A stretch of DNA of 64,000 nucleotides from Acidimicrobiia bacterium. GTDB lineage: Bacteria; Actinomycetota; Acidimicrobiia; Spongiisociales; UBA11373. This document shows, in pieces, positions 6,839 through 49,857 of the stretch (position 1 is the first letter of the stretch; each line of letters starts with the position of its first letter). The notes beneath the pieces were generated by a model that saw only the letters and a list, made by a program, of their open reading frames with translations, ran no database searches and was not told where the DNA came from. Location: positions 5,344 through 69,343 of the forward strand of contig JBKKBI010000062.1 of NCBI GenBank assembly GCA_046714175.1, written 5' to 3'. The translations under genes were made by a program, and so were the position numbers.

Positions 6839-7726
6839 TCAGTGGTCGGGAAACGGTGCGGCACGGGCCAGCATCGCAGGCGGGTGGTCGTGGCCGAGTT
6901 GGCCCGCGAGCCAAGTGCCGGTGGCCGCGGCGAGCGCCGGGTCGATTCCGGTCTCGATCCCCATTCCCCGCAGCAACGCCACGAGGTCTTCGGTGGCGAC
7001 ATTGCCTCCGGCTCCGGGGGAGAACGGCGACCCACCGTATCCGCCCACGGCGGCATCGAGGGAGGCGGCTCCTGATCTGACGGCGGCGACTGCGTTGGCG
7101 TATCCGGCATTGCGGGTGTTGTGAAAGTGGCATCGCACCGCAACTCCGGCGGCTGCGGCGACTGCGGGCACCAGCGACTCGACGCCGACGGGATTGGCCA
7201 CCCCGATGGTGTCGCCCAGGGCGATCTCGCCGGCCCCGGCGGCCGCGAACCCGGCGGCGAGCTCGACGACCCGCGCCATGGGTACCGCGCCCTCCACCGG
7301 GTCGCCGAATGCGACAGCAATCGTCACCGAAACCCGGCGTCCGGCTTCGCGGGCTCTGCCCACCATCGCCCGAACCTCCCGGTTGCGCTCATCGGCACCC
7401 TGCCCGGTGTTCTTCTCGGCGTATCCAGTGGATCCGTAGGCGACGAGGTTGATCTCATCGAGCTCGCATCCCAGTGCCCGATCCAGCCCTCGCTCGTTGA
7501 GCACGAGCCCGATCGACGAAAAAGCGCGGGACTGCAGCGCCGAACAGATGTCTTCGGCGCCGGCCATCTGTGGCACCCGGCGCGGATCCGCAAATGAGAC
7601 GGTCTCGATCCGTTTCCCACCGGCGCGCTCCATGCGGCGGATCAGCTCGATCCGGGTGGCGACTGGAAGAACCGCGGACTCACCCTGCAGGCCGTCGCGC
7701 GGTCCGACCTCGACGATCTCGATCAG
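6839..7726 (-). CDS. Hydroxymethylglutaryl-CoA lyase-like (HMGL family) protein; start codon unresolved
   Basis: ETVSFADPRRVPQMAG...CHFHNTRNAGYANAVAAV matches the HMGL-like family. The conserved N-terminal KSLIEIVEVGPRDGLQ is encoded in frame upstream of the first ATG (7633). No ATG/GTG/TTG precedes it. The 7726 boundary is nominal (CTG overlapping the hppD stop). Confidence 0.65.
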   Translation of the reverse strand: MIEIVEVGPRDGLQGESAVLPVATRIELIRRMERAGGKRIETVSFADPRRVPQMAGAEDICSALQSRAFSSIGLVLNERGLDRALGCELDEINLVAYGSTGYAEKNTGQGADERNREVRAMVGRAREAGRRVSVTIAVAFGDPVEGAVPMARVVELAAGFAAAGAGEIALGDTIGVANPVGVESLVPAVAAAAGVAVRCHFHNTRNAGYANAVAAVRSGAASLDAAVGGYGGSPFSPGAGGNVATEDLVALLRGMGIETGIDPALAAATGTWLAGQLGHDHPPAMLARAAPFPDH

Positions 7727-8844
7727 AGATTTCCCCGCTTCTCCTGCTCCCGTTCGATCGCCTCGAACAGTGCCTTGAAGTTGCCTTTGCCGAAGCCGGT
7801 GGCGCCACGGCGTTCGATGAACTCGAAGAAAACCGTGGGGCGATCCTGGAGCATCCGGCTGAAGATTTGGAGAAGGTATCCCCCCTCATCCTGGTCGAGC
7901 AAGATCTGCAGGTCCTCCACCTTCTTGCGGTCCACCTTGATGTCGGGCATGCGGCGCCACACGTCCTCGTAGTACGCCGCGGGCACTGCCAGAGTGTCGA
8001 AGCCTCGGGAGCGGGTTTCGGTCACCGTTCCGAGAAGGTCGCCCGTGTGCATGGCGATGTGCTGCACTCCCGGTCCGCGATAGAACTGCAAGTACTCGTC
8101 GATCTGGGACCGCTTCAGTCCCTCGGCGGGCTCGTTGATGGGAAGCTTGATTATTCCGGCCCCATCCCACATCACCTTGGACATCAGCGCCGTGTACTTG
8201 GTGCTGATGGCGTCGTCGTCGAAATGCTTGAGCAGGGTGAAACCAAAGACCCGTTCGTAGAACTCGACCCAATAGTCCATCTTTCCCAGTTCGACGTTCG
8301 CCACGACGTGGTCGATGAACTGCAGCCCGATCGGTCTTGCGATGGTGTCTTCCCGCGGTTCGAACCCGGGCAGGTCGCCCTCTCTCTCGACGAACGAGTG
8401 GATCGTGTCGCCGTAGGCGTGGATCGCTGCGATCACGGCCTTGCCGCGGGCATCTTCCACCACGAAGGGCTTGGCGGCAGGGTCGGCGCCGCGCTCCAGC
8501 GCCACCTCGAAGGCGGCCTCGGCATCGGGGACGTGTAACGCAACGTCGTGCACGCCCGGGCCGTGGCGATGGACGTGCTCGGCGACGGGGTGGTCCGGAC
8601 CCATCGCCGCGGTGACGACGTACCGGATCCGGTCCTGTTCGAGGAGATACGAGGCGGTTTCCCGCGTACCGGTCTCAGGCCCGCGGTAGCCGATGATGCG
8701 AAACCCGAGAAGATGACGAAAGAATTGGGCCGTCTGAAAGGCGTTGCCCACCCACCACTCAAGGTGCGAGAAACCCTTGATGGGGAACGCGTCGCGGCTC
8801 GCCATCTGCTTGGCACGGTTCAGGGTGCCCTGGTCGATGGTCAT
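7723..8844 (-). CDS. hppD: 4-hydroxyphenylpyruvate dioxygenase
   Basis: MTIDQGTLNRAKQMASRDAFPIKGFSHLEWWVGNA ... QIFSRMLQDRPTVFFEFIERRG. Strong RBS aggaggaag immediately before the ATG at 8842-8844. Confidence 0.9.
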   Translation of the reverse strand: MTIDQGTLNRAKQMASRDAFPIKGFSHLEWWVGNAFQTAQFFRHLLGFRIIGYRGPETGTRETASYLLEQDRIRYVVTAAMGPDHPVAEHVHRHGPGVHDVALHVPDAEAAFEVALERGADPAAKPFVVEDARGKAVIAAIHAYGDTIHSFVEREGDLPGFEPREDTIARPIGLQFIDHVVANVELGKMDYWVEFYERVFGFTLLKHFDDDAISTKYTALMSKVMWDGAGIIKLPINEPAEGLKRSQIDEYLQFYRGPGVQHIAMHTGDLLGTVTETRSRGFDTLAVPAAYYEDVWRRMPDIKVDRKKVEDLQILLDQDEGGYLLQIFSRMLQDRPTVFFEFIERRGATGFGKGNFKALFEAIEREQEKRGNL

Positions 8845-8983
8845 GATGCTTCCTCCTGGGAGGAGGACATTGTGCCGCGTTTGGCGAGGGAGCGAGAGGA
8901 TGGCCGGCGGCGCCCAACCGGGGCCGCCCATCGCCCATCATCTACTGCCTCGTTGCCTCAGGCGCCGCCGTTAGCCTCCGACC

Positions 8984-9892
8984 ATGGCACTCGAGATCAC
9001 CCGCCGCGATGCCCGCCGCCAGGCACTGGCGGGGCTGATCGACTACGCCGGGTTGTTTCCGCCTTCCTCGCTGGACATGGGTTCTGCAGCGGCGGAGTAC
9101 CGCGCCGCTCGCCTCGGCCCGGAGGCGTGGCTGGTGGATCGATTCATCTGCCCCGCAGACCGCCTGGTGGAGTTGGCCCGGGTGCTGATCACCACCATGC
9201 GATCCGGAGAGCCGCCGTGGTCGCTCGTGGTCACCGCTGCCCCGGGCGACGCCACGGTCGTCGCGGACTTCTCGTCCGAGCTGGGCCGATCGGCGCGTAT
9301 CGACGCCGTCGAAGTTCGCCTCCCGGCGGGGGCGACGGCGTCGGAGGTGGGGGAGATCCTGAAGGCTTTCGATCGGATCGTCTACTTCGAGGTGCCGTGG
9401 CGGGACCCGGTCGCGGCGCGCCTGCAGCTGCTGGCGGAGGTTCGCCAAAAGACCGGGCGCAGTCTCGGCGCCAAGATCCGGTGCGGTGGGACCACCCCTG
9501 ATGCCTTTCCACCGGCAGCCGCGGTGGCCGCCTTTCTCGCCGAATGCGCCCGTCTCCGGCTGCCGGTCAAGGCCACCGCGGGATTGCATCACCCGTTGCG
9601 CCACACCGACCCCACCACCGGTTTCACCCACCACGGTTTCCTCAACCTTCTCGCTGCCGCTGCTCTCGCCAATAGCGGTGAGTCAACGGCTGAATTGGAG
9701 GCGGTCCTGGAGGAGACGCATGCTGCGGAGTTCTCTCTCGATTCGAGCGGGCTGGGGTGGCGCCACCACCGAGTCGGTGGCGAAGCGCTCGCCGCGCTGC
9801 GGCGTGAGCTGCTCGTCGGCTACGGATCGTGCTCCATCGCGGAACCGGCGGCTGACCTCATCGCCCTCGGAATCCTTCCGGTGCGGCCGTGA
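8984..9892 (+). CDS. Hypothetical protein (His-rich motif KATAGLHHPLRH), translationally coupled to fahA
   Basis: 302 aa with no family recognised. Its stop overlaps the fahA GTG start (GTGA at 9889-9892). Divergent from hppD. Confidence 0.5.
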   Translation: MALEITRRDARRQALAGLIDYAGLFPPSSLDMGSAAAEYRAARLGPEAWLVDRFICPADRLVELARVLITTMRSGEPPWSLVVTAAPGDATVVADFSSELGRSARIDAVEVRLPAGATASEVGEILKAFDRIVYFEVPWRDPVAARLQLLAEVRQKTGRSLGAKIRCGGTTPDAFPPAAAVAAFLAECARLRLPVKATAGLHHPLRHTDPTTGFTHHGFLNLLAAAALANSGESTAELEAVLEETHAAEFSLDSSGLGWRHHRVGGEALAALRRELLVGYGSCSIAEPAADLIALGILPVRP

Positions 9893-11088
9893 CCACGATC
9901 GCGATTCCCACGGGAAGCGACTTCCCCCTGGAGAACCTGCCCTACGGGGTGTTCGACCCGGGTGAGGGCCCTCGGCTCGGCGTGGCCATCGGCGATGCTG
10001 TCCTCGATCTGCGGGCCGCGGCGAGCCGCGGGCTCCTTCCCCACGCAGACGAGTTGTCGCAACCGACCCTGCATCCATTCCTCGCCCTCGGTCGGGGACC
10101 ATGGCAGGAAACCCGCGCCGCGCTGCAAGCACTGCTCACCTCGGATCGCGTTCCCGCCGGGTCGATGCGAAATCGGTCCGAGGTGCGCATGCTGCTCCCG
10201 GTCCACCCTGGCGACTACGTGGACTTCTACTCATCGCTCCACCATGCCACCAATCTGGGACGGCTCTTTCGTCCTGGCGATGATCCGCTTCATCCCAATT
10301 GGCGCCAGCTGCCGGTGGGTTATCACGGGCGTGCGGGGAGCGTGATCGTGTCGGGCACCCCGGTGCATCGACCCCGCGGTCCGGTAGGGCCGGGAACTGG
10401 AGCGGTGCCAACCGCGGCACTCGACTTCGAACTCGAAGTCGGTTTCATCACCGGACCCGGAAGGCCTCTCGGGCAGGCGATCGCCGCCGACGATGCCGCC
10501 GACCACATCTTCGGCTTCGTCCTGGTGAACGACTGGAGCGCCCGTGACATCCAGCGGTGGGAGTACGTGCCACTGGGACCATTCTTGGGCAAGTCGTTTG
10601 CCACCACGATCTCGCCATGGGTCGTGCCTCTGGAGGCGCTACGGCCCTATCTGGTTGCGGGTCCACCGCAGGACCCCACCCCGTCCGACTATTTGCGGAC
10701 CGCGGGAGACTGGGGCCTCGACCTCACACTCGAAGTGGCGTTGCGGCCGGCTGGCGGACGCGAGCGGTCGATCACCCAGGTGGACTTTGCCTCCATGTAC
10801 TGGACGATCGCGCAGCAGTTGGCCCATGCGACCGTCAACGGGGCCCGGGTCCGCCCCGGCGACCTGTTCGCCTCCGGCACCGTATCCGGAGCCGATCCGG
10901 GCAGTTGGGGCAGCCTGATCGAGATCACCCGCAACGGAGCGGAGCCGCTCGAGTTGAGCGACGGCAGCACGCGCACCTTTCTCGAGGACGGAGACACCGT
11001 GGTCATCAGGGGCTGGGCCGAGCGCCCCGGCCTGCCGCGGATCGGATTCGGCGAGTGCGTGGGGACGGTCCTATCGGCCCTTGGCTGA
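9889..11088 (+). CDS. fahA: Fumarylacetoacetate hydrolase (fumarylacetoacetase)
   Basis: PYGVFDP...VGYHGRAGSVIVSGTPVHRP...FGFVLVNDWSARDIQRWEYVPLGPFLGKSF matches the FAH family. Confidence 0.85.
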   Translation: MTTIAIPTGSDFPLENLPYGVFDPGEGPRLGVAIGDAVLDLRAAASRGLLPHADELSQPTLHPFLALGRGPWQETRAALQALLTSDRVPAGSMRNRSEVRMLLPVHPGDYVDFYSSLHHATNLGRLFRPGDDPLHPNWRQLPVGYHGRAGSVIVSGTPVHRPRGPVGPGTGAVPTAALDFELEVGFITGPGRPLGQAIAADDAADHIFGFVLVNDWSARDIQRWEYVPLGPFLGKSFATTISPWVVPLEALRPYLVAGPPQDPTPSDYLRTAGDWGLDLTLEVALRPAGGRERSITQVDFASMYWTIAQQLAHATVNGARVRPGDLFASGTVSGADPGSWGSLIEITRNGAEPLELSDGSTRTFLEDGDTVVIRGWAERPGLPRIGFGECVGTVLSALG

Positions 11089-11193: not shown

Positions 11194-12174
11194 ATGGCTC
11201 GGGTTCGTCTCTTCGCCAACCTGCGGGAGCTTGCCGGCACGGCTTCGGTCGAGATCGACGGCGCGACTGTGGCCGAGATTCTCAGCGCCGCCACCGATCG
11301 TTATGGCGCCGACTTCGCCCGGGCACTGCAAACCGCCCAGGTGTGGGTCGATGGGGAACGGGTCACCCGCGAGGCCCCCGTCCCGCATGGGTCCGAGTTG
11401 GCGGTGATCCCTCCCGTCTCCGGCGGGTCGCTGGTGGTTCAGTCCCCGATCGGCCTCGAGATCGCGCTGGTGCTCGCGACCTTCGGGATCCTGTTCCTGG
11501 GCAACGCCCTTTCGCTGGAGTGGTTCACGGTGCTGGTCGTGCTGGTCGCATCCGTGTGGGTGTTGGACATCACCGGGTCCACCGACCGTCGCGGCCTTCC
11601 TCTGGCCAATGCGGTGATCATGCTCACTGTGGGCGCTGGCGCGCTCGCCACCTACCGCTTCGGTGTGGTTGGGATGGCGGCCACCGCCGGTACCGCCGTG
11701 GTCGGAGTACTGGTGGCATCGGTGTTCCGTTCCCTGCTCCGCCCAATCGACTCATTCGCGGCCGGGGCCGTTCTGGCGATCGTCACCGCCATCGGCACCT
11801 CTGCGATGGTTCTCTTGCGCCTGCGGTCGCGCGACGAGACCATGGTGTTCCTCTTCGTGCTCAGCGTGGCGGTGGTGGTCTCCTGGTTTTCGGATCGCGC
11901 CGAGATGCCCATCATCGACCCGCTGGTCGCCCTGCTGGTGGGGGCGGTGCTTGCCGGGGCAGTCGGTGGGGCGTTGTGGGCTCCCGACCTTCTCAGCGCC
12001 ATCGGAGCCGCGGTGGCCGCAGCGATTGCGCTGGTGTCAGGCCGCAACCTCGGCACCCTGCTCCGCGCTGGAGGCTTCTTCACCCAGGGCACCATTCCGG
12101 GGAGCCTCGCCTACTTTGATGGTGCCTTGCTCGCCGCCGCCGCCTTCTGGTCGATCCTGACGGTGCTCAGTTAG
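11194..12174 (+). CDS. MoaD/ThiS-like beta-grasp domain (ends ...IPPVSGG) fused in frame to a polytopic membrane domain
   Basis: MARVRLFANLRELAGTASVEIDGATVAEILSAATDRYGADFARALQTAQVWVDGERVTREAPVPHGSELAVIPPVSGG is followed directly by about 250 aa of hydrophobic helices. Confidence 0.55.
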   Translation: MARVRLFANLRELAGTASVEIDGATVAEILSAATDRYGADFARALQTAQVWVDGERVTREAPVPHGSELAVIPPVSGGSLVVQSPIGLEIALVLATFGILFLGNALSLEWFTVLVVLVASVWVLDITGSTDRRGLPLANAVIMLTVGAGALATYRFGVVGMAATAGTAVVGVLVASVFRSLLRPIDSFAAGAVLAIVTAIGTSAMVLLRLRSRDETMVFLFVLSVAVVVSWFSDRAEMPIIDPLVALLVGAVLAGAVGGALWAPDLLSAIGAAVAAAIALVSGRNLGTLLRAGGFFTQGTIPGSLAYFDGALLAAAAFWSILTVLS

Positions 12175-12257: not shown

Positions 12258-12276
12258 CTGACGGCGCTGCCGTCAG
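12258..12276. terminator. Hairpin CTGACGGC-gct-GCCGTCAG at the convergent gene ends
   Basis: Perfect 8-bp inverted repeat overlapping the aminotransferase stop codon. Confidence 0.3.
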
Positions 12277-13352
12277 AGCAGCCCGCGGAGCGCCACGATC
12301 AAGCCCTCGTTCTCCTGGGGCGACCCGGCGGTGATGCGCACCCAGCCCAGGGGCGGAACCGGGCGCACTATGTATCCCTTTTCCAGGAGGCCGTGCACCA
12401 TCGCGGCGGCGGCATCCCCAAATCGGGTGTAGACAAAGTTGGTCTGGGTGTCGATGACGGTGAGGCCGAGGTCGCGCAGCGTAGCGGTGAGGTGGGTCAC
12501 GGCGAGGGTGTTGCGGCGCACCCGTTCGGAAACCCGATCCTGATGTCGCAACGCCTCGACGGCGGCCACCTCGCCGAGAGTATTGACCGTGAAGGGCAGC
12601 TGCAGGCGGCGGAAGTTGGCGATCGACTCCTGCGCTGTGACCGCGTATCCGATCCGAAGCCCAGCGAGTCCGTAGGCCTTGGAGAAGGTACGGGTGACCA
12701 TCACGTTGTCGCGTGTGGCGGCGAGCGGAAGCATGGTGCGAAAGTCGGGTGCGGTGGCGAACTCGGCGTATGCCTCATCGATCACCACCAGGATGTCCTC
12801 GCGGAGGGAGTCCACGAAGTCTTCTAAGTCATCACCGGGGACGTGAGTGCCAGTGGGATTGTTCGGGTTGCACACGAACACCACGCTCGTGTCGGGTCGC
12901 ACCGCCTGGCGCATCGCGCCCAGGTCATGGCGATGGCGGCCGTCGAGTGGCACGGCGATGTCCGTGCCGAAGCCGGTGCGGGTGGCGATCTGATACAGGG
13001 AGAACGAGGGCCAGCTGTAGACCGCGCTGCTGGCGGGGTGGGTGACCGCGAGCGCGGCCACAAGGGTCAATTCGTTGCTCGCCCCTCCGCACCAGACGCG
13101 GTCGGTCGGCACCCCATAGAACTCCGACAGCGCCCGGGTGAGATCAGGTCGGCTGTTGTCCGGATAGCGATTGAGCCCGGCGGCCGCGGCGGCGATCGCC
13201 GCCTGTACCTCGGGAGCGGGAGGCTCCGGGCTCTCATTCGAGGCGAGCTTCACCACTTGTTGCAGCCGAAAGGTGGCGAGCACCTCGGCAATGGCGCGTC
13301 CCGGCCGATATGCCTCGATCCGGTCGATGTCAGGACGGAAGCGGATGGGCAT
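12273..13352 (-). CDS. Class II aminotransferase (histidinol-phosphate / aromatic aminotransferase family)
   Basis: KLASNESP, CNPNNPTG, TFSKAYGLAGLRIGY (the PLP-binding lysine motif). Confidence 0.8.
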   Translation of the reverse strand: MPIRFRPDIDRIEAYRPGRAIAEVLATFRLQQVVKLASNESPEPPAPEVQAAIAAAAAGLNRYPDNSRPDLTRALSEFYGVPTDRVWCGGASNELTLVAALAVTHPASSAVYSWPSFSLYQIATRTGFGTDIAVPLDGRHRHDLGAMRQAVRPDTSVVFVCNPNNPTGTHVPGDDLEDFVDSLREDILVVIDEAYAEFATAPDFRTMLPLAATRDNVMVTRTFSKAYGLAGLRIGYAVTAQESIANFRRLQLPFTVNTLGEVAAVEALRHQDRVSERVRRNTLAVTHLTATLRDLGLTVIDTQTNFVYTRFGDAAAAMVHGLLEKGYIVRPVPPLGWVRITAGSPQENEGLIVALRGLL

Positions 13353-15280: not shown

Positions 15281-16215
15281 TCGTCGGTTCGATCCGTAGC
15301 GGTCTGGTCGAGACCGTGCATCCCGTCGCCGTGGCCGTCGTCGATCCGGATGGAGCGGTCTTGGTCACTTCTGGTGACGCCTCGGATCGGGACTTCTTTC
15401 TCCGCTCCGCAATCAAGCCCCTTCAGGCCGCGGTATCGCAACGGCTGGGAGCGGCACTGGGCCTGGAACAACTCGCGGTGGCGGCATCGAGCCATGAGGG
15501 TCAGCCGGCGCACATCGCCATCGTCGAGCAGATGCTGCTCGAGGTCGGCCTGGAAGCGGGGAACCTGCGCTGCCCACCCGATTGGCCGGGCGACGCGGAC
15601 TCCGAGCGGCGATGGGTGGCGATGGGCCGGGACCACCAGGAGGCGGTGTTTCACAACTGCTCAGGCAAGCACGCTGCCATGCTCCGAGCCTGCGCGGCCC
15701 GGGGCTGGTCCCTCGAGTATCTCGCCGCCGACCATCCGCTGCAGAAGGAGGTGCTGGTCGCAGTGGAGGCTGCGACTGGCCGGACGGTGGGACCGACCGG
15801 AGTGGACGGATGTGGTGCGCCGACGCTGCGCAGCGATGTCGTCGGACTCGCCCGGGGATTCGCCGCCATCGCCGCGGACCCGGACCTGGCCGAGGTGCGC
15901 TCGGCAGCGATGCGCTTTGCCTCGCTGACCCGGGATGGCGATCGCCCCGAGACCGAGATCGCCCGCTGGCTCCCCACTGTCGTCAAGGGTGGGGCGGCGG
16001 GATGCATCGGGATCGCCTGGCCGGAAGGCGGCCTCGGTATCGCTGCCAAGTGCTGGACGGGTGACGGGGCCGCCGCGGTGGTCGGCGCCATCACGGTGAT
16101 GACCGAGTTGGGAATCGTTCCGGATCATCCGCGGGCTCAGCTGGAGGCGGTGGCGCATCCCCCGGTTCTGGGGGGCGGCAAGCCGGTCGGGCATCTTGCG
16201 GTGATCGAACGATGA
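15277..16215 (+). CDS. Asparaginase_II-family (PF06089-like) protein
   Basis: RSGLVETVHPVAVAVVDPDG...FFLRSAIKPLQAA; start overlaps the upstream stop (GTGA). Confidence 0.55.
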   Translation: MIVGSIRSGLVETVHPVAVAVVDPDGAVLVTSGDASDRDFFLRSAIKPLQAAVSQRLGAALGLEQLAVAASSHEGQPAHIAIVEQMLLEVGLEAGNLRCPPDWPGDADSERRWVAMGRDHQEAVFHNCSGKHAAMLRACAARGWSLEYLAADHPLQKEVLVAVEAATGRTVGPTGVDGCGAPTLRSDVVGLARGFAAIAADPDLAEVRSAAMRFASLTRDGDRPETEIARWLPTVVKGGAAGCIGIAWPEGGLGIAAKCWTGDGAAAVVGAITVMTELGIVPDHPRAQLEAVAHPPVLGGGKPVGHLAVIER

Positions 16216-17099
16216 ACCCTTGGGCCGATTGGTCGGGGCTGCAGGCCCTGGCCGGCGGCACCGGACCGTTCCCGTACCGCGGATTCCTGGAGTCTTGGTG
16301 GCGTCACCGGGGCCGAGGCGAGTTACTCACTCTCCGCGCCGGCGACGGGGCGGTGGGGCTGGTGGTCGATGCGGGTGTGGTCCGGTTCGTCGGGGAGGCG
16401 GACCTCACCGACTACCACTCTCCTCTCGGTGACGACCTGGAGCCGGTGGTGGCGGCGCTGGTCTCTGCCCTGGCCGCGGGCACCGTCCTGGCGCTGGACT
16501 CGCTGCCCATGGAAGCGGCCGAGCCTTTGATGAAACAATTCGCCGCCGCCGGCGTTGCTATGTCGATGAGTTCCCACGACGCCACGATGGTGCTGGACCT
16601 CCCCCGTGACCCCAACGCATATCTGGCGCTTCTCGACGCCAAACAGCGCCACGAACTGCGCCGCAAGCGTCGTCGCTTCGAGGAGCAAGCCGGGATCCCG
16701 AGCCTGGTCAGATATGACAACGCCCTGGAGGGTTTTGCTGCCATGCACCGCACCGCCACCGGAGAAAAGGGCGAGTTCATGACGCCCGACATGGAATCGT
16801 TCTTCGGCTCGCTGGTCACCGACGCCGGTGGGGTCATCGACCTGTTGCTCGATGGGTCGGGCAATCCGGCGGCGGCGGCATTCGGTTTCGAGGACGCCGA
16901 CACCTACTACCTGTACAACTCTGCGTTCGCGGCGGAACGAGCGCCGCTGTCGCCTGGGATCGTGCTCGTGGCGGAGTTGATCGCGGCGACCATCCGCTCC
17001 GGTCGGCGGCGTTTCGACTTCCTCAAAGGCGGAGAGGACTACAAGGTCCGCCTCGGAGCCCGACCCAGGCCGCTGTATCGGCTGGAGGGGGCGTTGTGA
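16212..17099 (+). CDS. GNAT/FemAB-like acyltransferase (Acetyltransf_6 / CelD-like)
   Basis: C-terminal ...YYLYNSAFAAERAPLSPGIVLVAELIAATIRSGRRRFDFLKGGEDYK matches BioF2/FemAB-like GNATs. 4-bp overlaps with both neighbours. Confidence 0.55.
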   Translation: MNPWADWSGLQALAGGTGPFPYRGFLESWWRHRGRGELLTLRAGDGAVGLVVDAGVVRFVGEADLTDYHSPLGDDLEPVVAALVSALAAGTVLALDSLPMEAAEPLMKQFAAAGVAMSMSSHDATMVLDLPRDPNAYLALLDAKQRHELRRKRRRFEEQAGIPSLVRYDNALEGFAAMHRTATGEKGEFMTPDMESFFGSLVTDAGGVIDLLLDGSGNPAAAAFGFEDADTYYLYNSAFAAERAPLSPGIVLVAELIAATIRSGRRRFDFLKGGEDYKVRLGARPRPLYRLEGAL

Positions 17100-18280
17100 T
17101 CTCCCGGGTGGCGTTTCTCAGCATCCATTCCTCGCCGCTCGACGCCCCCGGCGTCGGGGACGCCGGAGGCATGAACGTGTACATCGATGCCCTGGCCCGC
17201 ACCCTGGCAGGACGCGACATTCAGGTGGACGTGTTCACTCGTCGGGCCTCCGACGCGATCCCCGCCGAAGTCGAGGTGGTGCCCGGCTACTGCGTGATTC
17301 ATATCGATGCGGCCGGCAGCGACACCGCCGACATGGTGGGGGCCTTCTCCGAAGGCGTCGCCAAATGGTTGGCGGCGCGCCAGGCGACTCCCGATCTGGT
17401 CCACAGTCATTACTGGCTGTCGGGTTGGGCGGGGGCGCATCTGCAGCAGGTTCTTGGAGTGCCTTTGGCGATCTCGTTCCACACGCTGGGGCGGGTGAAG
17501 GAGGCGACGCGGGCACCAGGTGAGCCCCGGGAGTCACTGGTGCGCATTGCGGCCGAAACCGAGGTGGTGGCTCGCGCCGGGTGCATGATCGCTTCTACCC
17601 CGGCCGAGGCTGCCGACCTGATCGAGCACTACCAGGCGAACCCGGAGCGCATCTGCGTCTCGCCTCCCGGGGTGGATCACAGCGTCTTTCGACCCGGCGA
17701 CAAGGACCGGGCGCGACGGCGCCTGGGTCTGGATCCCGGTCCGCTGGTGGCCATCGTCGGGAGGATCCAGCCCCTCAAGGGGATCGATGTAGCTATCGCC
17801 GCCGTTGCCGCTCTGCCCGGGGTACGACTCCTCGTGGTCGGTGGTCCGAGTGGGCCCATGGGTGAGTCCGAATTGGTGCGCCTCCACGCTCTCGCCGAAC
17901 AGACCGCTCCGGGGAGGGTGACTTTCATGCCGCCCCGCCCCCACGGCGATATCGCCTGCGTGTATCGCGCGGCCGACGCAGTCATCGTTCCCAGCCGGTC
18001 GGAGTCGTTCGGGTTGGTGGCCGTCGAGGCTCAGGCGTGTGGCATCCCGGTGGTGGCGTCGCGAGTCGGAGGGTTGGCGTACTCGGTCGAGGACGACCGC
18101 ACCGGGTATCTGGTCGCTGGCCACGATCCCGCCGACTACGCCCGGGCGCTCGCTGCGATCCTCGATGATGCCGACAACGCCGCCCGATTGTCCGCCGGCG
18201 CCATCGCCCACGCCGCCGGATTCTCGTGGGACGCGACCGCGGATCGACTGGTGGAGTTGTACCGCGGGTTGCTCGAGTAG
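17096..18280 (+). CDS. mshA: D-inositol-3-phosphate glycosyltransferase (mycothiol biosynthesis)
   Basis: SIHSSPLDAPGVGDAGGMNVYI is the hallmark MshA motif. GT4 C-terminal domain EAQACGIPVVASRVGGL. Confidence 0.85.
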   Translation: MISRVAFLSIHSSPLDAPGVGDAGGMNVYIDALARTLAGRDIQVDVFTRRASDAIPAEVEVVPGYCVIHIDAAGSDTADMVGAFSEGVAKWLAARQATPDLVHSHYWLSGWAGAHLQQVLGVPLAISFHTLGRVKEATRAPGEPRESLVRIAAETEVVARAGCMIASTPAEAADLIEHYQANPERICVSPPGVDHSVFRPGDKDRARRRLGLDPGPLVAIVGRIQPLKGIDVAIAAVAALPGVRLLVVGGPSGPMGESELVRLHALAEQTAPGRVTFMPPRPHGDIACVYRAADAVIVPSRSESFGLVAVEAQACGIPVVASRVGGLAYSVEDDRTGYLVAGHDPADYARALAAILDDADNAARLSAGAIAHAAGFSWDATADRLVELYRGLLE

Positions 18281-37677: not shown

Positions 37678-37982
37678 GGGTGCTCCCGTCGAGGATCTGC
37701 CGAGTATCGCACCGGCCCACGGCTAGCGGGGAGAGGGTGGCGGCCCTGTTAGACCATCAGATCCTGGACATAGGCGGGTTCGGCAAGGGCCTGGAAGTGT
37801 CGGGGTTGGGCCGTCAGTCATCAGCCAGAAACGGATGCACCTCCCGGGTGGCGGGGCAGATCCTCGCACGGCTGTCGGGAGCGGACTCTGGCTGAAAGCT
37901 GGTGGCTGACTGCTGTCGGCTTCCCGTGACTTTCCCCCTGTCGGGCGGCTCTAATCTCCAGGGTCCGCGATCCCACGGAGCC

Positions 37983-38396
37983 ATGTCTCTCAGCGACTAC
38001 CTCCCCATCGCCCTCATGTTCGGGATCGCTGTGGGCTTCGCCCTGGTGTCGCTGTTCCTGTCCCGGCTGATCGCCCCCAACAACCCGACTCCGGAGAAGT
38101 TGGAGCCGTATGAGTGCGGGATCGTCCCGCTGCAGGAGCCGGTGCAGCGGTTCCCGGTGAAGTTCTACATGGTGGCCATGCTCTTCGTTCTCTTCGACAT
38201 CGAGATCGTCTTCCTCTTCGCCTGGGCGGTGCGCTTTCACCAGTTGGGCTGGTACGGGATGGCGGCGGTGGGAGTGTTCACCTTCCTCCTCATCGAGACC
38301 CTGGTGTATGTGTGGAAGCGCGGCGCCCTGGATTGGAACGTGGCGCACCGGCGCAGGCGTGTGGTCGCGGACCAGGAATTGCAGAAGGCAGCCTGA
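37983..38396 (+). CDS. nuoA: NADH-quinone oxidoreductase subunit A
   Basis: [12 protein letters not shown]...[12 protein letters not shown]. Internal ATG chosen over the track start; the upstream codons are not coding-like. Confidence 0.85.
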
Positions 38397-38863
38397 TGGC
38401 GCAGCCGGCGGGCCCCCCCAACCTGCTCACTGCCTCATTGAACAAGGCGGTGGCGTGGGCACGCACCCGGTCGATGTGGCCGGTCTCCTTCGGCTTGGCA
38501 TGCTGCGCCATCGAGATGATGGCCACCGGCGCCGCCCACAACGACCTATCCCGGTTCGGCATGGAGGTCTTCCGTGCCTCCCCGCGCCAGGCCGACCTGA
38601 TGATCGTGGCGGGACGCGTCTCGCAGAAGATGGCCCCGGTGCTGCGCCAGGTCTATGACCAGATGGCCGAGCCCAAGTGGGTGATCTCGATGGGCGCCTG
38701 CGCCTCCACGGGGGGCATGTTCAACAACTACGCCCTGGTGCAGGGGGTGGACCAGGTGGTCCCCGTCGACGTATACGTTCCGGGGTGTCCGCCGGGACCG
38801 CAGTCGCTGATGCACGGCATCCTCACGCTGCAGGAGCAGATCAGGGCGAGGGCGGGCCGATGA
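38396..38863 (+). CDS. nuoB: NADH-quinone oxidoreductase subunit B
   Basis: [11 protein letters not shown]...[14 protein letters not shown]...VPGCPP. Confidence 0.9.
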
Positions 38864-39354
38864 GCCGCATCGCCGCCATTGCAGCCGCGGTACCGGGTGC
38901 ACAGGTCGAAGACTCGTTCGGCCAGGCGCTGATCCGGGTGCCCCGGGAGTCGCTGGCTGCGGCGGCGGCGGCGGCGCGTGACGGCGGATTCGCCATGTTC
39001 ATCGACCTGTGCGCGGTGGACTATCTGACCCGCGATCCCCGCTTCGAGGTGGTGGTGAACCTGCTGGCGTTTGATCCACCGGAACGGGTCCGTCTCCTCG
39101 CCGGGGTCCCCGGTGAGGACCCAACCGCTCCGAGCATCACGGGTGTGTTTGCCGGCGCCGACTTCTACGAGCGCGAGGCGTTCGATCTCTTCGGAATCGG
39201 ATTCGATGGCCATCCCGATCTGACACGGATTCTTCTGCCGGACGAGTGGCAGGGACATCCGTTGCGCAAGGACAGTCCCGTCGGCTCGGTGCCGGTGGCC
39301 TTCAAGGAGGCTGCCGATCGCACGCACGAGAGGCCCCTCGAGGCCACGCCGTGA
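38860..39354 (+). CDS. nuoC: NADH-quinone oxidoreductase subunit C
   Basis: [39 protein letters not shown]. Confidence 0.85.
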
Positions 39355-40784
39355 GCAAGCCCCCCGACGTCGTCACCGGCGACCTGGAAGCACCGGCCGA
39401 GGTGCACGATCCGCGGGCGGATACTGCCGCGCCCGCGGGGGGGTCGCGACACACCGTCCACGACGTGTGGGTGAGCGGTACCGAGGCCTCGGACGAGATG
39501 CGCGGATTCACCGATGAGGGTGACCAGGAGATGCTCGCCGAGGAGCCGGCGGAGGTGCTCGCCGGGCAACGCGGGGCGCTGGTGGTGGACGACTATCTGG
39601 CCACGAGGGAGTCTCCCGACGACGAGATCCAGATCCTCAACATGGGCCCGCAGCACCCTGCGACCCATGGGGTGCTCCGGCTGCACATCGAACTCGACGG
39701 CGAGACGATTCGCCGGGTGAAGCCGATCATCGGCTATCTGCACACCGGCATGGAGAAGACCGCCGAGACGCTTTCGTTCCTGCAGGGCCCCACCAACGTC
39801 ACCCGGATGGACTACCTCTCGCCACTGCACAACGAGTTGTGCTTCTCGCTTGCCACCGAGCGGTTGCTCGACATCGACGTTCCTGAGCGCGCCGACGCCA
39901 TCCGCGTGTTGATGACCGAGCTCAATCGGGTGGCCAGCCATCTGCTGTGGAGTGCCACCACCGGTCTCGACATCGGTGCGCTTTCGATGATGATCTACGG
40001 GTGGCGGGAGCGCGAGTTGGTGCTGGCGTTCTTCGAGAAAACCACCGGGTTGCGGATGAACCACAACTACATCCGTCCCGGCGGCGTCGCCGCAGACCTG
40101 CCCGACGGATGGGAGGACGACGTCGACGGCATCGTCGCCGGGGTGCTCGCCGGTCTTGCCGACTACGAGGCATTGCTGCTCGACAACCCGATCTTCCTGG
40201 AGCGCACCAAGGGCATCGGGGTGCTCGCCCGCGAGGAGATCCACGCCTACGGCGTCACCGGTCCCATGGCCCGGGCGTCGGGGATCGGCTACGACGTGCG
40301 TAAGGCGTTCCCGTACTCCGGCATCGAGCAGTACGACTTCGAGGTCCCGGTCTTCGAAGGTGGCGATGTGTATGACCGGTTCCTGGTGCGGTTCGAGGAG
40401 ATCCGCCAGTCGCTGCGCATCGTGCAGCAGGTCAAGGCGGCGATGCCCCGCGGCGATTACCGCAGCGAGGACCGCAAGGTGACCCCACCGCCGCGCGCCC
40501 GCATCGACCAGTCGATGGAGGCGCTGATCCATCACTTCAAGATATTCACCGAGGGGTTCAAGGTTCCCGCCGGGGAGACCTACCAGGCGGTGGAGTCTGC
40601 CCGGGGCGAGTTGGGGATGTACCTGGTATCCGACGGCGGGGCCAAGCCGTGGCGGCTGCACGTGCGCGGCCCATCGTTCGCCCACGTCCAGGTGTTGCCG
40701 GCGATGCTCACCGACTCCCTGATCGCCGACACGATCGCGGCGCTGGCATCGGCGGATCCCGTGATGGGAGATGTGGATCGATGA
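39351..40784 (+). CDS. nuoD: NADH-quinone oxidoreductase subunit D (with an N-terminal acidic extension; alternative ATG start at 39498)
   Basis: NMGPQHPATHGVLRL...; GTG overlapping the nuoC stop. GC3 stays high through the extension. Confidence 0.85.
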   Translation: MSKPPDVVTGDLEAPAEVHDPRADTAAPAGGSRHTVHDVWVSGTEASDEMRGFTDEGDQEMLAEEPAEVLAGQRGALVVDDYLATRESPDDEIQILNMGPQHPATHGVLRLHIELDGETIRRVKPIIGYLHTGMEKTAETLSFLQGPTNVTRMDYLSPLHNELCFSLATERLLDIDVPERADAIRVLMTELNRVASHLLWSATTGLDIGALSMMIYGWRERELVLAFFEKTTGLRMNHNYIRPGGVAADLPDGWEDDVDGIVAGVLAGLADYEALLLDNPIFLERTKGIGVLAREEIHAYGVTGPMARASGIGYDVRKAFPYSGIEQYDFEVPVFEGGDVYDRFLVRFEEIRQSLRIVQQVKAAMPRGDYRSEDRKVTPPPRARIDQSMEALIHHFKIFTEGFKVPAGETYQAVESARGELGMYLVSDGGAKPWRLHVRGPSFAHVQVLPAMLTDSLIADTIAALASADPVMGDVDR

Positions 40785-40786
40785 GC

Positions 40787-40832
40787 CCACTACCCGCTAC
40801 CCGCTACCCGGTACCCGTTGCCCGTCGCCCGC
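40787..40832. repeat. Tandem heptamer array (ctacccg-type) in the nuoD-nuoE junction
   Basis: ccactacccgctacccgctacccggtacccgttgcccgtcgcccgc. Confidence 0.6.
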
Positions 40833-40886
40833 AGAGCGCGGCGCCTATCGCCCACCGCCGATCGCTTCTCTGCAAAGGATCCCGCC

Positions 40887-41491
40887 GTGTGGGATGAGGC
40901 CACCCTGGCGCGGGCGCACTCTCTCGTTGCTCAGTATCCCGAGCCGCGGTCCGCGGTGATGCCGTTGCTATTTCTCGCCATGCGCAACGACGGCGGGCTC
41001 ACCGATGCCGGGATGCGGCGGGTGGCCGAACTCACCGGGGTGACGCCGGTGCAGGTCGAGGCGGTGGCGTCCTTCTACAACATGTATCTGCGCCGTGTCG
41101 GTCGCCATGTCGTCTCGGTGTGCCGTTCCATCTCGTGCCATCTGCTCGGTGCGGACACGGTGCGAGACGCCGTTGTCGACGAGGCCGGAGTTCCAGAAGG
41201 CGAGACGGCTTCCGACGGGTCGGTCACAGTGGTGTTCACCGAATGTATCGGCGCCTGCGGAGGTGCCCCGGCGATGCAGGTCGACTACGAGATGGTGGAG
41301 GGCATGACGCCCGAATCGGCCCGTCGGCTGATCCGCTGGCTGCGTGAGGAAAAGCCGGAGGCTATCCGCTCCGACGATCTACAACAGCGCTTCGGCGGCG
41401 GTCAATCGTTCGATTGGGGACCTGACGACTCCACCGCGGCGCTCGGCCCCGTTCCGGCGTTCGGCCCCTATGGCACCGCGGGAGGAAGCGC

Positions 41492-41495
<4 letters not shown>
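40887..41495 (+). CDS. nuoE: NADH-quinone oxidoreductase subunit E
   Basis: YPEPRSAVMPLLFLAMRNDGG...CRSISCHLLGAD...CIGACGGAPAM. GTG at 40887 with an AAAGGA RBS is preferred. The alternative TTG at 40818 lies inside the heptamer repeat. Confidence 0.8.
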
Positions 41496-42770
<1,275 letters not shown>

Positions 42771-42778
<8 letters not shown>

Positions 42779-45200
42779 CCCGGTCAAGCTCACCATCGAC
42801 GGTCGCGAGGTCTCTGCCCCCGGCGGCGAGCTGTTGATCAAAGCCGCCGAGGAGAACGGGACCTACATCCCCCGGTTCTGCTGGCACTCGCGCATGGAGC
42901 CGGTAGGGATGTGCCGGATGTGCCTGGTCGAAGTGGAAACCGCGCGGGGCAAGGGTCTCACCACGGCTTGCACGATGCGGGTGGCCGAAGGAATGGTGGT
43001 GCACACCAAGAGCGATGTCGTCAAGAAGGCTCAGGAGGGGGTGCTCGAGTTCCTGCTGCTGAATCACCCTCTCGACTGCCCGGTATGCGACAAGGGCGGG
43101 GAGTGCCCCCTGCAGGATCAGACCCTTTCCCATGGCCCGGGCGAGTCGCGTTTCGTCGAGGAGAAGCGCCACTTCGAGAAGCCGATCCCGATCAGCGACC
43201 TGGTCCTACTCGACCGCGAGCGGTGCATCTTGTGCGCTCGCTGCACCCGCTTCAGCTCCGAGATCTCCGGTGATCCGTTGATCGAGTTCATCGACCGCGG
43301 CAACTACACCCAGGTGAACACCTTCCCTGGCCTGCCGTTCTCGTCGTACTTCTCGGGAAACACCGTGCAGATCTGCCCGGTCGGCGCCCTCACCGCAACC
43401 CCGTACCGCTTCAAGGCTCGACCCTGGGACCTTGATGCGGTGGAGAGCACCTGTCCGCACTGTTCGGTGGGGTGTCGCATGTCGGTGCAGGCGTCGCAGA
43501 ACCGGGTGCTGCGTTTGATCGGCGTGGACGTGGAGGCCACCAGCCATGGGTGGCTGTGCGACAAGGGGCGATTCGGATTCGAATACCTGCGGGCTCCGGC
43601 GCGCCTCTCCACACCGCTGGTGCGGGATGGCGACGGCGAGCTGCGCGCGGCAGAGTGGGGAGAAGCGCTGGATGTGGCTGCCGCCGGCATCAAGAAGGTT
43701 CTGGCCACCACAGGACCGCAAGCGGTGGCCGGTCTCGGCGGAGCCCGGGGCACCAATGAAGAGGCCTATGCGTTCGTCAAACTGCTCCGTGGTGTGATCG
43801 GCACCGGGAACCTCGACGCTTCGGTCGGTGATGATCCCGGTGCCGGGCTTCTCGTCGCCATTCCCCGACGCGCCACCATCGGCGATCTGGAGCGGGCCAA
43901 GACCATCCTGGTGTGGGGGCCCGATCTCAAGGAGGAACTGCCTGTCCTCTATCTCCGGATCCGTCGCGCCGCCACCGCGCTCGGCGCGACCCTCATAGTG
44001 GTCCATCCCCGCGCCACCGGCCTCGATGCTGACGCCACCCACACCGTGCGCTATCGCCCCGGCGAAGGTGCCGCGATGCTGCAAAGGCTCGCCGCCGGGG
44101 AGGGCGACCTGGCGCCGGTGCGGGCAGCACTCAACAAGGGTCCAGTCGTAGCCGTGGTGGGTCGTACCGGTCTCGCCGAAAGCGCCGACCTGGCCGGGGC
44201 GGTGGCGGCGTTCGCGCTCTACCTTTCCGACGCCGCGGTGCTCCCGGTGGCGCGGCGCGGCAATCTGCTCGGCGCGTTCGACATGGGGATGTCCCCCGGC
44301 CTGCTTCCCGGGCGGGTTTCAGTCACCAATGCCGCGGCACGGGCCGCGGTGGGTGAGGTGTGGGGTACCGCGGTGGCGGATTCGGGCCGTGACGTCGACG
44401 GCATCCTCGCCGGAATGTCAGATGGGTCCATCGGCGCGGTGCTGCTCTTGGGAACGGATCCGGTGGCGGATCATCCCGACCGCAACGCCACCCAAGCAGC
44501 ATTTCTCCGCCCGAAGGGCGAGCCGCCCTTCCTGGTGTCCCTCGACCTGTTCATCACCGAGTCGAATCGGGGTGCCGATGTCGTTCTCCCCGTCGATACC
44601 TTTACCGAGGTGGAGGGGACGGTCACCAACCTGGAGGGGCGGGTGCAGAAGTCCAATCGGGTCGTACCCGGCGTGGGCGGCTCGCGACCTGCGGTCGAGG
44701 TGCTCGACGATCTCGCAGTTCGTCTCGGCGGCAGCGTTGGTGGTTCGGCGGCGGCGCTGGCCAAGGAGATCGCTGCGGTGGCACCCGCCTACGGTGCGAT
44801 GAGTTGGGACGCGCTCGACTGGGGTTCGGGTCGAGATGGCATCGTTGCCGGCGCGAGCTCCTTCGTTCACAGCCCTGCCGCGGCGAGGGATCCGGCCACC
44901 GGCGAATTCACCCTGCACCTCGCCCGGGTCCTCTACGACGGCGGCACCATCGTCACCTCCGGCGAGTCACTGGCGCCCCTGGCTCCGGTACCCGCAGCCC
45001 ATCTCCATCCGGATGATGCCGCTCGCCTCGGCCTGGCCGCCGGCGATCGTGTCACCGTCACCGGCAACGCGGGCACTGCCACGCTCCCGTTGGCGCTGGA
45101 CTCCACGCTGGCGCCAAAGACGGTTTATGTGCAGTTCAATCTCGGAGCCACTTTGGGGAACGCGATCGATGTGTCGATAGCGCGGGCGGTCGATCGATGA
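42771..45200 (+). CDS. nuoG: NADH-quinone oxidoreductase subunit G
   Basis: FCWHSRMEPVGMCRMCLVEV...CPVCDKGGECPLQD...CILCARCTRF. Confidence 0.9.
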
Positions 45201-45279
45201 CCTCGGTGCATCGCCTCCCGGCTCCCGCTTCCCACCAGACCCGCAGGCGGCTCCTGGCTGTGGGCAGGAGCGCAGCGAC

Positions 45280-46383
45280 GTGACCGACTTTCTCGAAACC
45301 CTCTTCACCACTCCTCTGTGGTCCGGGCTGATCAAGGCCGGGGTGGCGTTCGGCCTGCTCATGCTCACCGCCTTGGTGCTGGTGTGGTTCGAGCGGCGGG
45401 TGGTGGCGTTCATGCAGAACCGGATCGGCCCCAATCGCGCCGGACCGTTCGGGGTGCTGCAGACCCTGGCCGACGGGTTGAAGCTGCTCTTCAAGGAAGG
45501 GATCAAGCCTCGCAAGGCCGAGGTGGGGCTGTACATGGCGGCGCCGATAGCGGCGATGGTCCCGGCCTTCCTCATCTTCATGGTGGTGCCCATCGGGGCG
45601 CCGGTCACGATCGGTGAAACCACAGTGACCCTGCAAGGGGCCGACCTCAACGTGGCATTGCTCTTCGTCCTGGCGATGTCGTCGCTGGCGGTGTACTCGG
45701 TGGTGTTGGCGGGTTGGTCGTCGGGGTCCAAGTACCCGTTGTTGGGCGGGGTGCGGGCCACGGCGCAGATGATTTCCTACGAGGCGGCGATGGGACTCGC
45801 CCTGGTGCCGGTGGTCGTCCTCGCCTCGGCCCTGCTCGCCGGCGGCGATGCCGGGCTGGGAACGCTGTCGTTTGCCACCCTGGTCGAGTTGCAGGCGGGA
45901 TCGTTCCGCGGTCCGATCCCCGGTTGGTTCGTGTTTTGGCTGTTGCCCTCGTTCCTCATCTTCTTCACCGCCGCGATTGCCGAGACCAACCGCGCCCCGT
46001 TCGACCTGGTCGAGGCGGAGTCGGAGATCGTCGGCGGATATCACACCGAGTACTCCGGGTTCCGCTTCGCCATGTTCTATCTCGCCGAGTACATCAACAT
46101 GTTCAACGTCTGCGCCATCGCGGTGACCCTGTTCCTCGGCGGTTGGCTCGGCCCTGGTGCCAACCTCCCCTTCATAGGGTGGGCGGTGCCCGTGTTCTGG
46201 TTCCTGGTCAAGACCTACTTCCTGCTGTTCGTGCTGGTCTGGATCCGGGCGACCCTGCCCCGCTTTCGCTACGACCAACTGATGAACCTGGGTTGGAAGC
46301 GGTTGATCCCGCTCTCGCTGGTGTGGCTGGTGCTGTTTGCCGCGGTCCGGGCCTGGCAGTCCTTCGGGGCGCCGTGGAGGTGA
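45280..46383 (+). CDS. nuoH: NADH-quinone oxidoreductase subunit H
   Basis: FMQNRIGPNRAGPFGVLQTLADGLKLLFKE...ETNRAPFDLVEAESEIVGGYHTEYSG. Confidence 0.9.
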   Translation: MTDFLETLFTTPLWSGLIKAGVAFGLLMLTALVLVWFERRVVAFMQNRIGPNRAGPFGVLQTLADGLKLLFKEGIKPRKAEVGLYMAAPIAAMVPAFLIFMVVPIGAPVTIGETTVTLQGADLNVALLFVLAMSSLAVYSVVLAGWSSGSKYPLLGGVRATAQMISYEAAMGLALVPVVVLASALLAGGDAGLGTLSFATLVELQAGSFRGPIPGWFVFWLLPSFLIFFTAAIAETNRAPFDLVEAESEIVGGYHTEYSGFRFAMFYLAEYINMFNVCAIAVTLFLGGWLGPGANLPFIGWAVPVFWFLVKTYFLLFVLVWIRATLPRFRYDQLMNLGWKRLIPLSLVWLVLFAAVRAWQSFGAPWR

Positions 46384-46387
46384 TGCG

Positions 46388-47068: not shown

Positions 47069-47582
47069 ACTGGTCCTCTTCATCATCTTCGCCCTTGCCG
47101 CCCTGTTCGGTGCGGTCACGATGGTGTGGGCGCGCAACCCGGTCTATTCGGCCATGGGGCTGATGCTCACGATGTTCTCCATCGCGGTTTTCTACGTGTC
47201 CAACGGCGCCCACTTCATCGCCGCGGTACAGGTGATCATCTATGCCGGCGCGGTGATGACCCTGTTCCTTTTCGTGATCATGCTCATCGGAGTCGACAAG
47301 GCGGAATCGCGCACCGAGAACCTGCCGCTGCAGCGGCCGCTGGCGCTGGGGCTGATGGCGTTGTTCGGAGCCGGAGTCGCCATCGCCGGCCGCTCCGCGT
47401 GGGTGACAGGACGGGCACCCGCCGGGGGCGCCCCGCCCGACGGCTCGATCGAGCAGGTGGGGTCCGAGCTGTTCAACAACTGGTTGCTTCCCTTCGAGGT
47501 GACCGCGCTCTTGTTGATTGTCGCCGCCACCGGCGCCATCGCGCTGGCCTTCTTCCGGGACGAAGACCGGGGGTTGTCGTGA
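47061..47582 (+). CDS. nuoJ: NADH-quinone oxidoreductase subunit J
   Basis: [36 protein letters not shown]. Confidence 0.85.
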
Positions 47583-49746: not shown

Positions 49747-49754
49747 TCACTCGC

Positions 49755-49783
49755 TGCCCGCCACCCGCCACCCGCTACCCGCA
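49755..49783. repeat. Heptamer array ctgcccg/ccacccg/ctacccg at the nuoL-nuoM junction
   Basis: ctgcccgccacccgccacccgctacccgc. Confidence 0.55.
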
Positions 49784-49857
49784 AGGGAGGGCCGGTGACC
49801 GCCTATCGCCCATCGCTCCTCTGGCAGCCATCGGGAGTCGTGTCTCGGGAGAACTCC

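Follow-up and report, generated by a model that had tools for sequence, protein, structure and literature searches.

The 64,000-nucleotide stretch of an Acidimicrobiia genome analyzed here (contig JBKKBI010000062.1, positions 5,344 to 69,343; hereinafter the window) carries on its forward strand, at 8984–9892, a 302-amino-acid (aa) open reading frame (ORF) that is translationally coupled to the gene for fumarylacetoacetase (FahA) and belongs to a widespread, unnamed family with a predicted TIM-barrel fold (hereinafter X). We propose that X is a glutathione-independent maleylacetoacetate isomerase that is non-homologous to, and replaces, the zeta-class glutathione S-transferase (GST) MaiA, and put the probability of this at about 0.6. 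The proposal follows from X filling the slot between hmgA, the gene for homogentisate 1,2-dioxygenase (HGD), and fahA in many phyla, and from its mutual exclusivity with GST-type maiA in the sampled data, with gene context being the decisive evidence for its function. Considerably more tentatively, we suggest that X might constitute a new class of cofactor-independent TIM-barrel cis-trans isomerases, in which the enzyme's own invariant cysteine replaces glutathione, and with which the missing maiA step would be accounted for in Actinomycetota, Bacillota, Acidobacteriota, Gemmatimonadota, Planctomycetota, Eremiobacterota and other lineages.

The catabolism of tyrosine and phenylalanine via homogentisate is a core pathway. 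To our knowledge, the only maleylacetoacetate isomerase described so far is a GST that depends on glutathione, yet the majority of bacterial phyla do not produce this thiol. The initial annotation of the window, made from its letters alone, had put forward the ORF as a non-orthologous replacement for one of the missing steps, or else as a pathway regulator or accessory factor. The results below favor a replacement of maiA, given the hmgA-X-fahA slot and the said exclusivity, speak against one of hmgA, as HGD co-occurs with X, and render a regulatory or accessory role unlikely, the protein being a predicted TIM barrel with ten polar residues conserved in at least 99% of the family members.

Gene context of X across bacteria

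Gene neighborhoods were tabulated for 80 X loci, one per species, with the HGD count limited to the 57 that have adequate flanks. In 68 of the 80, fahA lies within 200 nt downstream of X on the same strand, and in 74 it is found somewhere in the locus; the co-occurrence with fahA, which the initial annotation had singled out for checking, is near-obligate. An HGD gene is present in 30 of the 57 loci, with 16 showing it directly upstream, in the order hmgA-X-fahA, and 14 elsewhere in the locus, where it is commonly convergent and just past fahA. HGD accompanies X in every cluster examined from cultured organisms, as illustrated by the following arrangements:

Tsukamurella tyrosinosolvens: hppD-hmgA-X-fahA
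Pseudonocardia: hmgA-X-fahA
Priestia megaterium: hppD-X-fahA-hisC-hmgA-amino acid permease, behind an Lrp/AsnC regulator
Streptomyces plasmid: hmgA-X-fahA-CoA transferase A-B
Streptomyces albidoflavus chromosome: hmgA-X-fahA-CoA transferase A-B, behind IclR regulators
Rhodococcus (X 26–28% identical): FAD monooxygenase, HGD-like cupin-X-fahA, CoA transferase A/B and thiolase
Kovacikia (a cyanobacterium): HGD and hppD divergent from X-fahA

The Tsukamurella and Pseudonocardia proteins are 34–37% identical to the window protein (E-values 4e-25 and 3e-28) and keep all the motifs that define the family (see below). In the operons of cultured organisms X is the sole unassigned gene and the cis-trans isomerization of maleylacetoacetate is the sole step without a gene, the other steps, from uptake or hydroxylation through acetyl-CoA, all having assigned genes.

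Distribution relative to GST-type maiA

Among 282 plasmid records matching FahA, X is present on 24, all from Actinomycetota or Bacillota, plus one cyanobacterium, and on none of the approximately 190 that belong to the proteobacterial genera listed. Inspection of six fahA regions of Proteobacteria (Ralstonia, Sphingobium, Acinetobacter, Paracoccus, Variovorax and Microbulbifer) showed that the cluster includes an annotated GST-type maiA in three of them, and X in none. Conversely, tblastn searches with three MaiA seeds recovered no GST-type MaiA at E ≤ 0.01 in 96 X-bearing sequences (1.5 Mb). Within the sampled data, X and GST-type maiA are mutually exclusive. The absence of X from Proteobacteria disfavors a generic helper, whether tautomerase, detoxifier or acetoacetate enzyme, since these would be expected there too; it fits a replacement of the glutathione-dependent isomerase, which would not be expected in that phylum. 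The phyla with X use differing low-molecular-weight thiols, namely mycothiol, bacillithiol, glutathione or unknown ones, and this spread disfavors a dependence on one specific external thiol and directs attention to a cysteine of X itself, C283. One X locus, L011 (CAXMPL010000007.1), is binned as "uncultured Kiloniellales" (Alphaproteobacteria), and has genes for an HMG-CoA-lyase-like protein, HppD, a short HGD, X and FahA arranged as in Acidimicrobiia, with products 53–80% identical to the Acidimicrobiia seeds; the contig is probably mis-binned.

The X family

Members of the X family span about 280–340 aa and are defined by the motifs D-x-A-G-x-F-P-P (from residue 20), E110, E136, K-x-R-x-G-G (164–169), K-x-T-A-G-L-H-H (196–203), H-G-F-x-N (217–221) and G-S/T-C (281–283). 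Every one of these is present in the window protein, in which residues 196–207 read KATAGLHHPLRH, and which matches the 119 other listed family members with E-values of 5e-130 to 1e-55. A word-indexed search returned more than 3,600 relatives, an exhaustive HMMER profile search of 1.84 billion representatives gave 5,948 clusters at E ≤ 1e-3, with 5,009 of them reaching E ≤ 1e-10, and X was detected in at least 592 species when each GTDB species was represented by one genome. The taxa concerned include Acidimicrobiia and other Actinomycetota, Eremiobacterota/Vulcanimicrobiota, Acidobacteriota, Gemmatimonadota, Planctomycetota, Armatimonadota, Krumholzibacteriia and Bacteroidota/Rhodothermales, among others. 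The source names of these proteins are all "hypothetical" or "uncharacterized", including those of the chromosomal copies in NCBI and UniRef from S. albidoflavus, S. hygroscopicus, Nocardia and Janibacter.

A match to an unrelated characterized family, which the initial annotation had allowed for, did not materialize: neither the single sequence nor the profile has a match in Pfam, NCBIfam or the PDB sequences (phmmer and profile search), and Pfam searches with 41 members of the alignment at E ≤ 5 gave isolated single hits only. No function is assigned to X in the databases searched or in the searchable literature, and no description of the family, or of any non-GST maleylacetoacetate isomerase, was found in that literature, whose coverage leaves out subscription-only papers. 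Structure prediction yields a TIM barrel (pLDDT 95, pTM 0.92), for which Foldseek retrieves weak, generic TIM-barrel matches from the PDB.

Ten polar residues are conserved in at least 99% of 460 non-identical members, whose identity to the window protein goes down to 31%, and these residues are the same with or without an adjacent HGD. Their positions in the predicted structure are as follows:

D20: predicted strand 1
E110: predicted strand 4
E136: predicted strand 5
K164 and R166: predicted strand 6
K196, T198 and H202: predicted strand 7 and its loop
N221: helix following predicted strand 7
C283: immediately past predicted strand 8

On the predicted fold, these residues (D, E, E, K, R, K, T, H, N and C) make up a pattern characteristic of the active site of a TIM barrel; as polar residues conserved to this degree sit on a TIM barrel, a role as scaffold or regulator is disfavored. 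C283 is the sole invariant cysteine of the family, C167 being conserved in just 48% of the members (Thr in 49%). Among the arginines, R166 and R206 are conserved, while R53 and R273 are found in most members. The initial annotation had called the ORF His-rich, a description that does not fit it overall: it has eight histidines in 302 aa (2.6%), confined to residues 202–262, with only H202 and H203 conserved and H217 mostly so. Two members from the HMMER search show additional domains. In P0150, a metagenomic protein of 448 aa, X is followed by the N-terminal domain of fumarylacetoacetase, representing either a fusion or a frameshift read-through, and in P0259 (545 aa) an Rce1-like CAAX-protease membrane domain precedes X.

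The accompanying homogentisate dioxygenase

X is accompanied by a short type of HGD, about 385–400 aa long (for example, L086:3948-5141, L089:10516-11670, L001:7147-8004 and L094:4767-5969). It matches the Pfam models HgmA_N and HgmA_C weakly (E-values 1e-10 to 7e-3) and its annotation varies between "HGD domain-containing protein" and plain "cupin domain-containing protein". Automated pipelines could easily score hmgA as absent from these lineages. The "cupin" encoded before X in L001, whose gene call looks N-terminally truncated, was considered as a novel HGD substitute and rejected, as it shares 62% identity with the short HGD of Gram-positive type. In the window itself, tblastn detects neither an HGD (six seeds, covering the long proteobacterial and short Gram-positive types) nor a GST-type MaiA (three seeds) in the 64 kb, as the initial annotation had observed. 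Its description of a cluster lacking hmgA therefore holds for the window, although the gene is probably simply unlinked to the cluster in the source genome, because about half of the homologous X loci likewise have no hmgA within 10 kb.

The locus in the window

The genes of the pathway in the window are:

8984..9892, + strand: X, 302-aa ORF, member of an unnamed TIM-barrel family; candidate glutathione-independent maleylacetoacetate isomerase
9889..11088, + strand: fahA, fumarylacetoacetase (TIGR01266, PF09298 and PF01557)
7723..8844, − strand: hppD, 4-hydroxyphenylpyruvate dioxygenase (TIGR01263), divergent from X; the ORF extends to 8931
8845..8983: intergenic region of 139 bp between the divergent hppD and X-fahA
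12273..13352, − strand: HisC-family class I/II aminotransferase (PF00155 and TIGR01141)

The clustering of hppD, fahA and an aromatic-type aminotransferase gene, first noted in the initial annotation, is confirmed by profile scores above the respective cut-offs. The fahA product scores 478 bits against a cut-off of 375 for TIGR01266, and that of hppD 402 bits against 277 for TIGR01263, marking them as a true fumarylacetoacetase and a true 4-hydroxyphenylpyruvate dioxygenase. The aminotransferase, whose gene is syntenic in L002 and L012, scores 290 bits against 277 for TIGR01141 and is the probable tyrosine/aromatic aminotransferase of the pathway. The overlap of the X stop with the fahA start likewise stands: TGA at 9890–9892 overlaps GTG at 9889–9891, the four shared bases, read directly, being GTGA. 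The codon bias of X is of the coding type, with a GC3 (G+C at third codon positions) of 0.80, equal to that of the neighboring genes, as against 0.67–0.70 overall. As the TIGR01263 match begins at residue 52 of the hppD ORF and a GGAGGA ribosome-binding site lies 5 bases before the ATG at 8844, this codon, 29 codons inside the ORF start at 8931, is probably the real start of hppD. Both promoters, together with any operator, presumably lie in the 139-bp intergenic region. Among the ten unassigned ORFs of the window that were scanned, none showed a GST or DinB domain.

An HMG-CoA-lyase-like gene on the − strand at 6839–7633 is syntenic with hppD, X and fahA across Acidimicrobiia (L001, L002, L004, L009 and L011). 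Its product is only 264 aa long and the profile match sets in at model position 36–39, which could reflect a miscalled start or a truncated gene. Acetoacetate is a product of both the FahA and the HMG-CoA-lyase-like reactions. Just 3′ of fahA, the + strand gene at 11194–12174, a position kept in Acidimicrobiia (L001, L002, L004, L013, L016 and L093), codes for a 326-aa protein in which an N-terminal ThiS/MoaD ubiquitin-like domain (PF02597, residues 4–78) is fused to a domain of about 250 aa, hydrophobic and multi-pass in appearance.

Proposed reaction and mechanism

In the pathway that we envisage, tyrosine would be transaminated by the HisC-type enzyme and converted via HppD to homogentisate, the ring of which would be opened by an HGD, assumed by analogy to be encoded elsewhere in the source genome, to give 4-maleylacetoacetate. 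X would then turn this into 4-fumarylacetoacetate, to be taken over at once by the translationally coupled FahA and converted to fumarate and acetoacetate. As for catalysis, we regard a thiol mechanism as possible and offer it with some reserve. Here, Cys283, lying past strand 8, would serve as an internal thiol and attack the maleyl double bond at C2, with the enolate being stabilized by K164, R166, K196 and H202, or by a divalent metal bound to D20, E110 and E136; the C2–C3 bond would then rotate and the thiol depart. The two carboxylates of the substrate might be bound by R166 and R206, plus R53 and R273 in most members. A Schiff-base variant proceeding via K164 or K196 would be equally compatible with the DERA-like fold predicted for X.

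Several points weigh against the assignment of X as a maleylacetoacetate isomerase. The reaction itself we infer through guilt by association, and the roles given to Cys283 and the lysines are conjecture. The HGD that would supply the substrate was not found in the 64-kb window. The distribution of X is not strictly linked to a lack of glutathione, for Kovacikia, which carries X, belongs to the cyanobacteria, a glutathione-making phylum. Further, 6 of the 80 loci have no fahA in reach. Two of Solirubrobacteraceae (L014:8466-10798 and L070:8466-10768) show X right behind a carboxyl-transferase gene (PF01039, E-value 1e-158), with fahA, hmgA and hppD all absent within 10 kb, and may reflect a paralogous use of X in another acyl-CoA or leucine-type pathway. 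In one Phycisphaerales locus X precedes an MFS transporter gene, with no fahA near. Across the loci lacking fahA or having an inserted gene, the neighbors, coding for carboxyltransferase, amidase, MFS transporters, DUF559, cyclophilin and a sigma-54 activator, are uninformative.

Finally, another actinomycete candidate exists for the isomerase step: a study of S. albidoflavus counts a protein of the mycothiol-dependent maleylpyruvate isomerase (MDMPI) family among the tyrosine-metabolism genes (PMC11012174).

Alternative explanations

This last candidate enters into an alternative to which we assign a small though appreciable likelihood, namely that X acts on the diketo-acid intermediates in another way, be it as a keto-enol tautomerase of maleyl- or fumarylacetoacetate or in the salvage or detoxification of side products such as succinylacetoacetate, with the isomerization occurring non-enzymatically, by thiol catalysis or through another protein, for instance of the DinB/MDMPI family. 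The gene context would fit this equally, enolization chemistry is common in TIM barrels and actinomycetes have many MDMPI-family proteins; yet a tautomerase or detoxifier should be equally useful to Proteobacteria, whose fahA plasmids in the sample never carry X, with GST-type maiA present instead in three of the six regions inspected, and no X operon examined has an MDMPI or GST gene inside it. The same phylum bears on the idea that X operates downstream of FahA, as a DERA-like class I (Schiff-base) aldolase or decarboxylase acting on acetoacetate via K164 or K196, since Proteobacteria without X need the same downstream steps. While the TIM-barrel fold and the synteny with the HMG-CoA-lyase-like gene in Acidimicrobiia would accord with such a role, an acetoacetate CoA-transferase is already encoded beside X in Streptomyces and Rhodococcus, along with a thiolase in the latter, a CoA-transferase accompanies X in only 1 of the 80 one-per-species loci, and X lacks a sequence link to DeoC (hhalign probability 0.3%; no PF01791 match). 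Hence, we deem an acetoacetate-directed activity improbable.

Still less probable, to our mind, is a non-catalytic function of X, as a chaperone, scaffold or metal-delivery factor for FahA or HGD, or as a ligand-sensing regulator. The tight translational coupling and the apparent fusion to FahA could be taken in its favor, as could a fungal precedent, hmgX, which, going by the title of PMC3203155, is an uncharacterized accessory gene in tyrosine-degradation clusters. Against it stand the active-site pattern of invariant residues, the lack of a DNA-binding domain in X and the presence of dedicated regulators (IclR, Lrp/AsnC and GerE) encoded next to the clusters. There is, lastly, hardly any likelihood that X replaces HGD where hmgA is not nearby, and we reject this possibility: the conserved His, Glu and Asp could bind iron and the window has no detectable HGD, but X and HGD co-occur in over half of the loci with adequate flanks and in all the clusters from cultured organisms, usually as hmgA-X-fahA, and the conserved residues of X are unchanged irrespective of whether an HGD gene is adjacent.

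Other features of the window

Apart from the ten that were scanned, ORFs outside 5.5–16.2 kb were identified by eye only, mostly as genes of respiratory complexes. They include cytochrome bc- and oxidase-type genes at about 21.9–30 kb, a nuoA-N operon, complete in appearance, at 37902–52936, and, 8 kb beyond it, a second pair of NuoD-like and NuoH-like genes at 61081–63383. A truncated class II ribonucleotide reductase gene occupies 1–1681 on the − strand. At 16212–18280 (+ strand), two genes, one for a FemAB-like acetyltransferase (PF13480) and one for a GT4 glycosyltransferase, are kept downstream of the asparaginase II gene in Acidimicrobiia; the N-terminus of the glycosyltransferase, reading GGMNVY..., may be of the MshA type. 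The coding signal is poor at 54700–57350, where the ORFs are short and of low GC3, and neither this region nor the rest of the window has Rfam matches at gathering thresholds. The sole ARAGORN call, a 92-nt tRNA-Val at 53459–53550, lies within an ORF and is probably spurious.

Significance

When the pathway is reconstructed for Streptomyces, Rhodococcus, Mycobacterium abscessus, Priestia or any of thousands of uncultured lineages, the isomerase step is left with either a gap or a guessed filler. The present proposal offers a specific functional hypothesis for about 6,000 sequence clusters that are without annotation in Pfam, NCBIfam or the literature. If it is true, a long-standing gap in bacterial tyrosine catabolism would be closed, large-scale corrections to genome annotations and metabolic models would follow, and the engineering of pyomelanin and tyrosine pathways in actinomycetes would be better informed. 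EC 5.2.1.2 would then gain an analogous enzyme of new fold and chemistry, and X would become a further case of glutathione-less lineages rebuilding thiol-dependent steps.

Comparison with known enzymes

The predicted model gives X the (β/α)8 barrel in common with class I aldolases of the DERA/DeoC type. In DERA the Schiff-base lysine is on strand 6 and a second lysine on strand 7; X has K164 and K196 (at least 99% conserved) on predicted strands 6 and 7, as possible counterparts. A sequence link was rejected, as hhalign of the family profile against Escherichia coli DeoC gives the negligible probability quoted above, and the PDB profile search with X returned no aldolase. Equally rejected was a correspondence to the K-[KR]-C-G-H loop of isocitrate lyase and phosphoenolpyruvate (PEP) mutase: the window protein has K164-I-R-C-G-G at this point, with the poorly conserved C167, and the Foldseek match to methylisocitrate lyase is weak (E-value ~5e-4, TM ~0.4).

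Precedents for Gram-positive bacteria swapping a GST-type cis-trans isomerase for an unrelated protein are found in MDMPI (NCgl2918 of Corynebacterium) and the L-cysteine-dependent BagL. Both serve the gentisate pathway, with maleylpyruvate as substrate, and are helical proteins of DinB-type fold that depend on an external thiol. Unlike these, X has no DinB or MDMPI match in Pfam, is predicted to adopt an α/β barrel and is associated with fahA and hmgA, not with gentisate dioxygenase. Glutathione-independent homogentisate pathways in Gram-positive bacteria were reportedly described by Crawford and Frick in 1977; on the more tentative reading of X as a new enzyme class, it would be the isomerase at work in them. 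A glutathione-independent gentisate pathway is cited in PMC3572157 (its reference 44).

A mechanistic model for the proposed role of Cys283 is provided by maleate cis-trans isomerase. This member of the Asp/Glu racemase superfamily is cofactor-independent, with a cysteine of the enzyme adding to the maleyl double bond. The two differ in that maleate isomerase has the Asp/Glu-racemase fold and two catalytic cysteines, whereas X is a predicted TIM barrel with one invariant cysteine and no Pfam match.

MaiA/GSTZ1, the zeta-class GST (EC 5.2.1.2), has the GST fold and uses glutathione as cofactor, the thiolate of which, in GSTZ1, adds to the double bond. The proteins are without sequence or fold relationship: MaiA is about 212 aa long and annotated as a GST, while X is a TIM barrel of about 300 aa in which Pfam, NCBIfam and the predicted fold reveal neither the N-terminal thioredoxin-like nor the C-terminal helical domain of GSTs. 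The context of X is compatible with the reaction of MaiA, and not with its glutathione dependence. X is proposed to catalyze the same reaction from the same place in the cluster, beside fahA, perhaps also by way of thiolate addition to the double bond, with the taxonomic ranges of the two enzymes being complementary in our sample.

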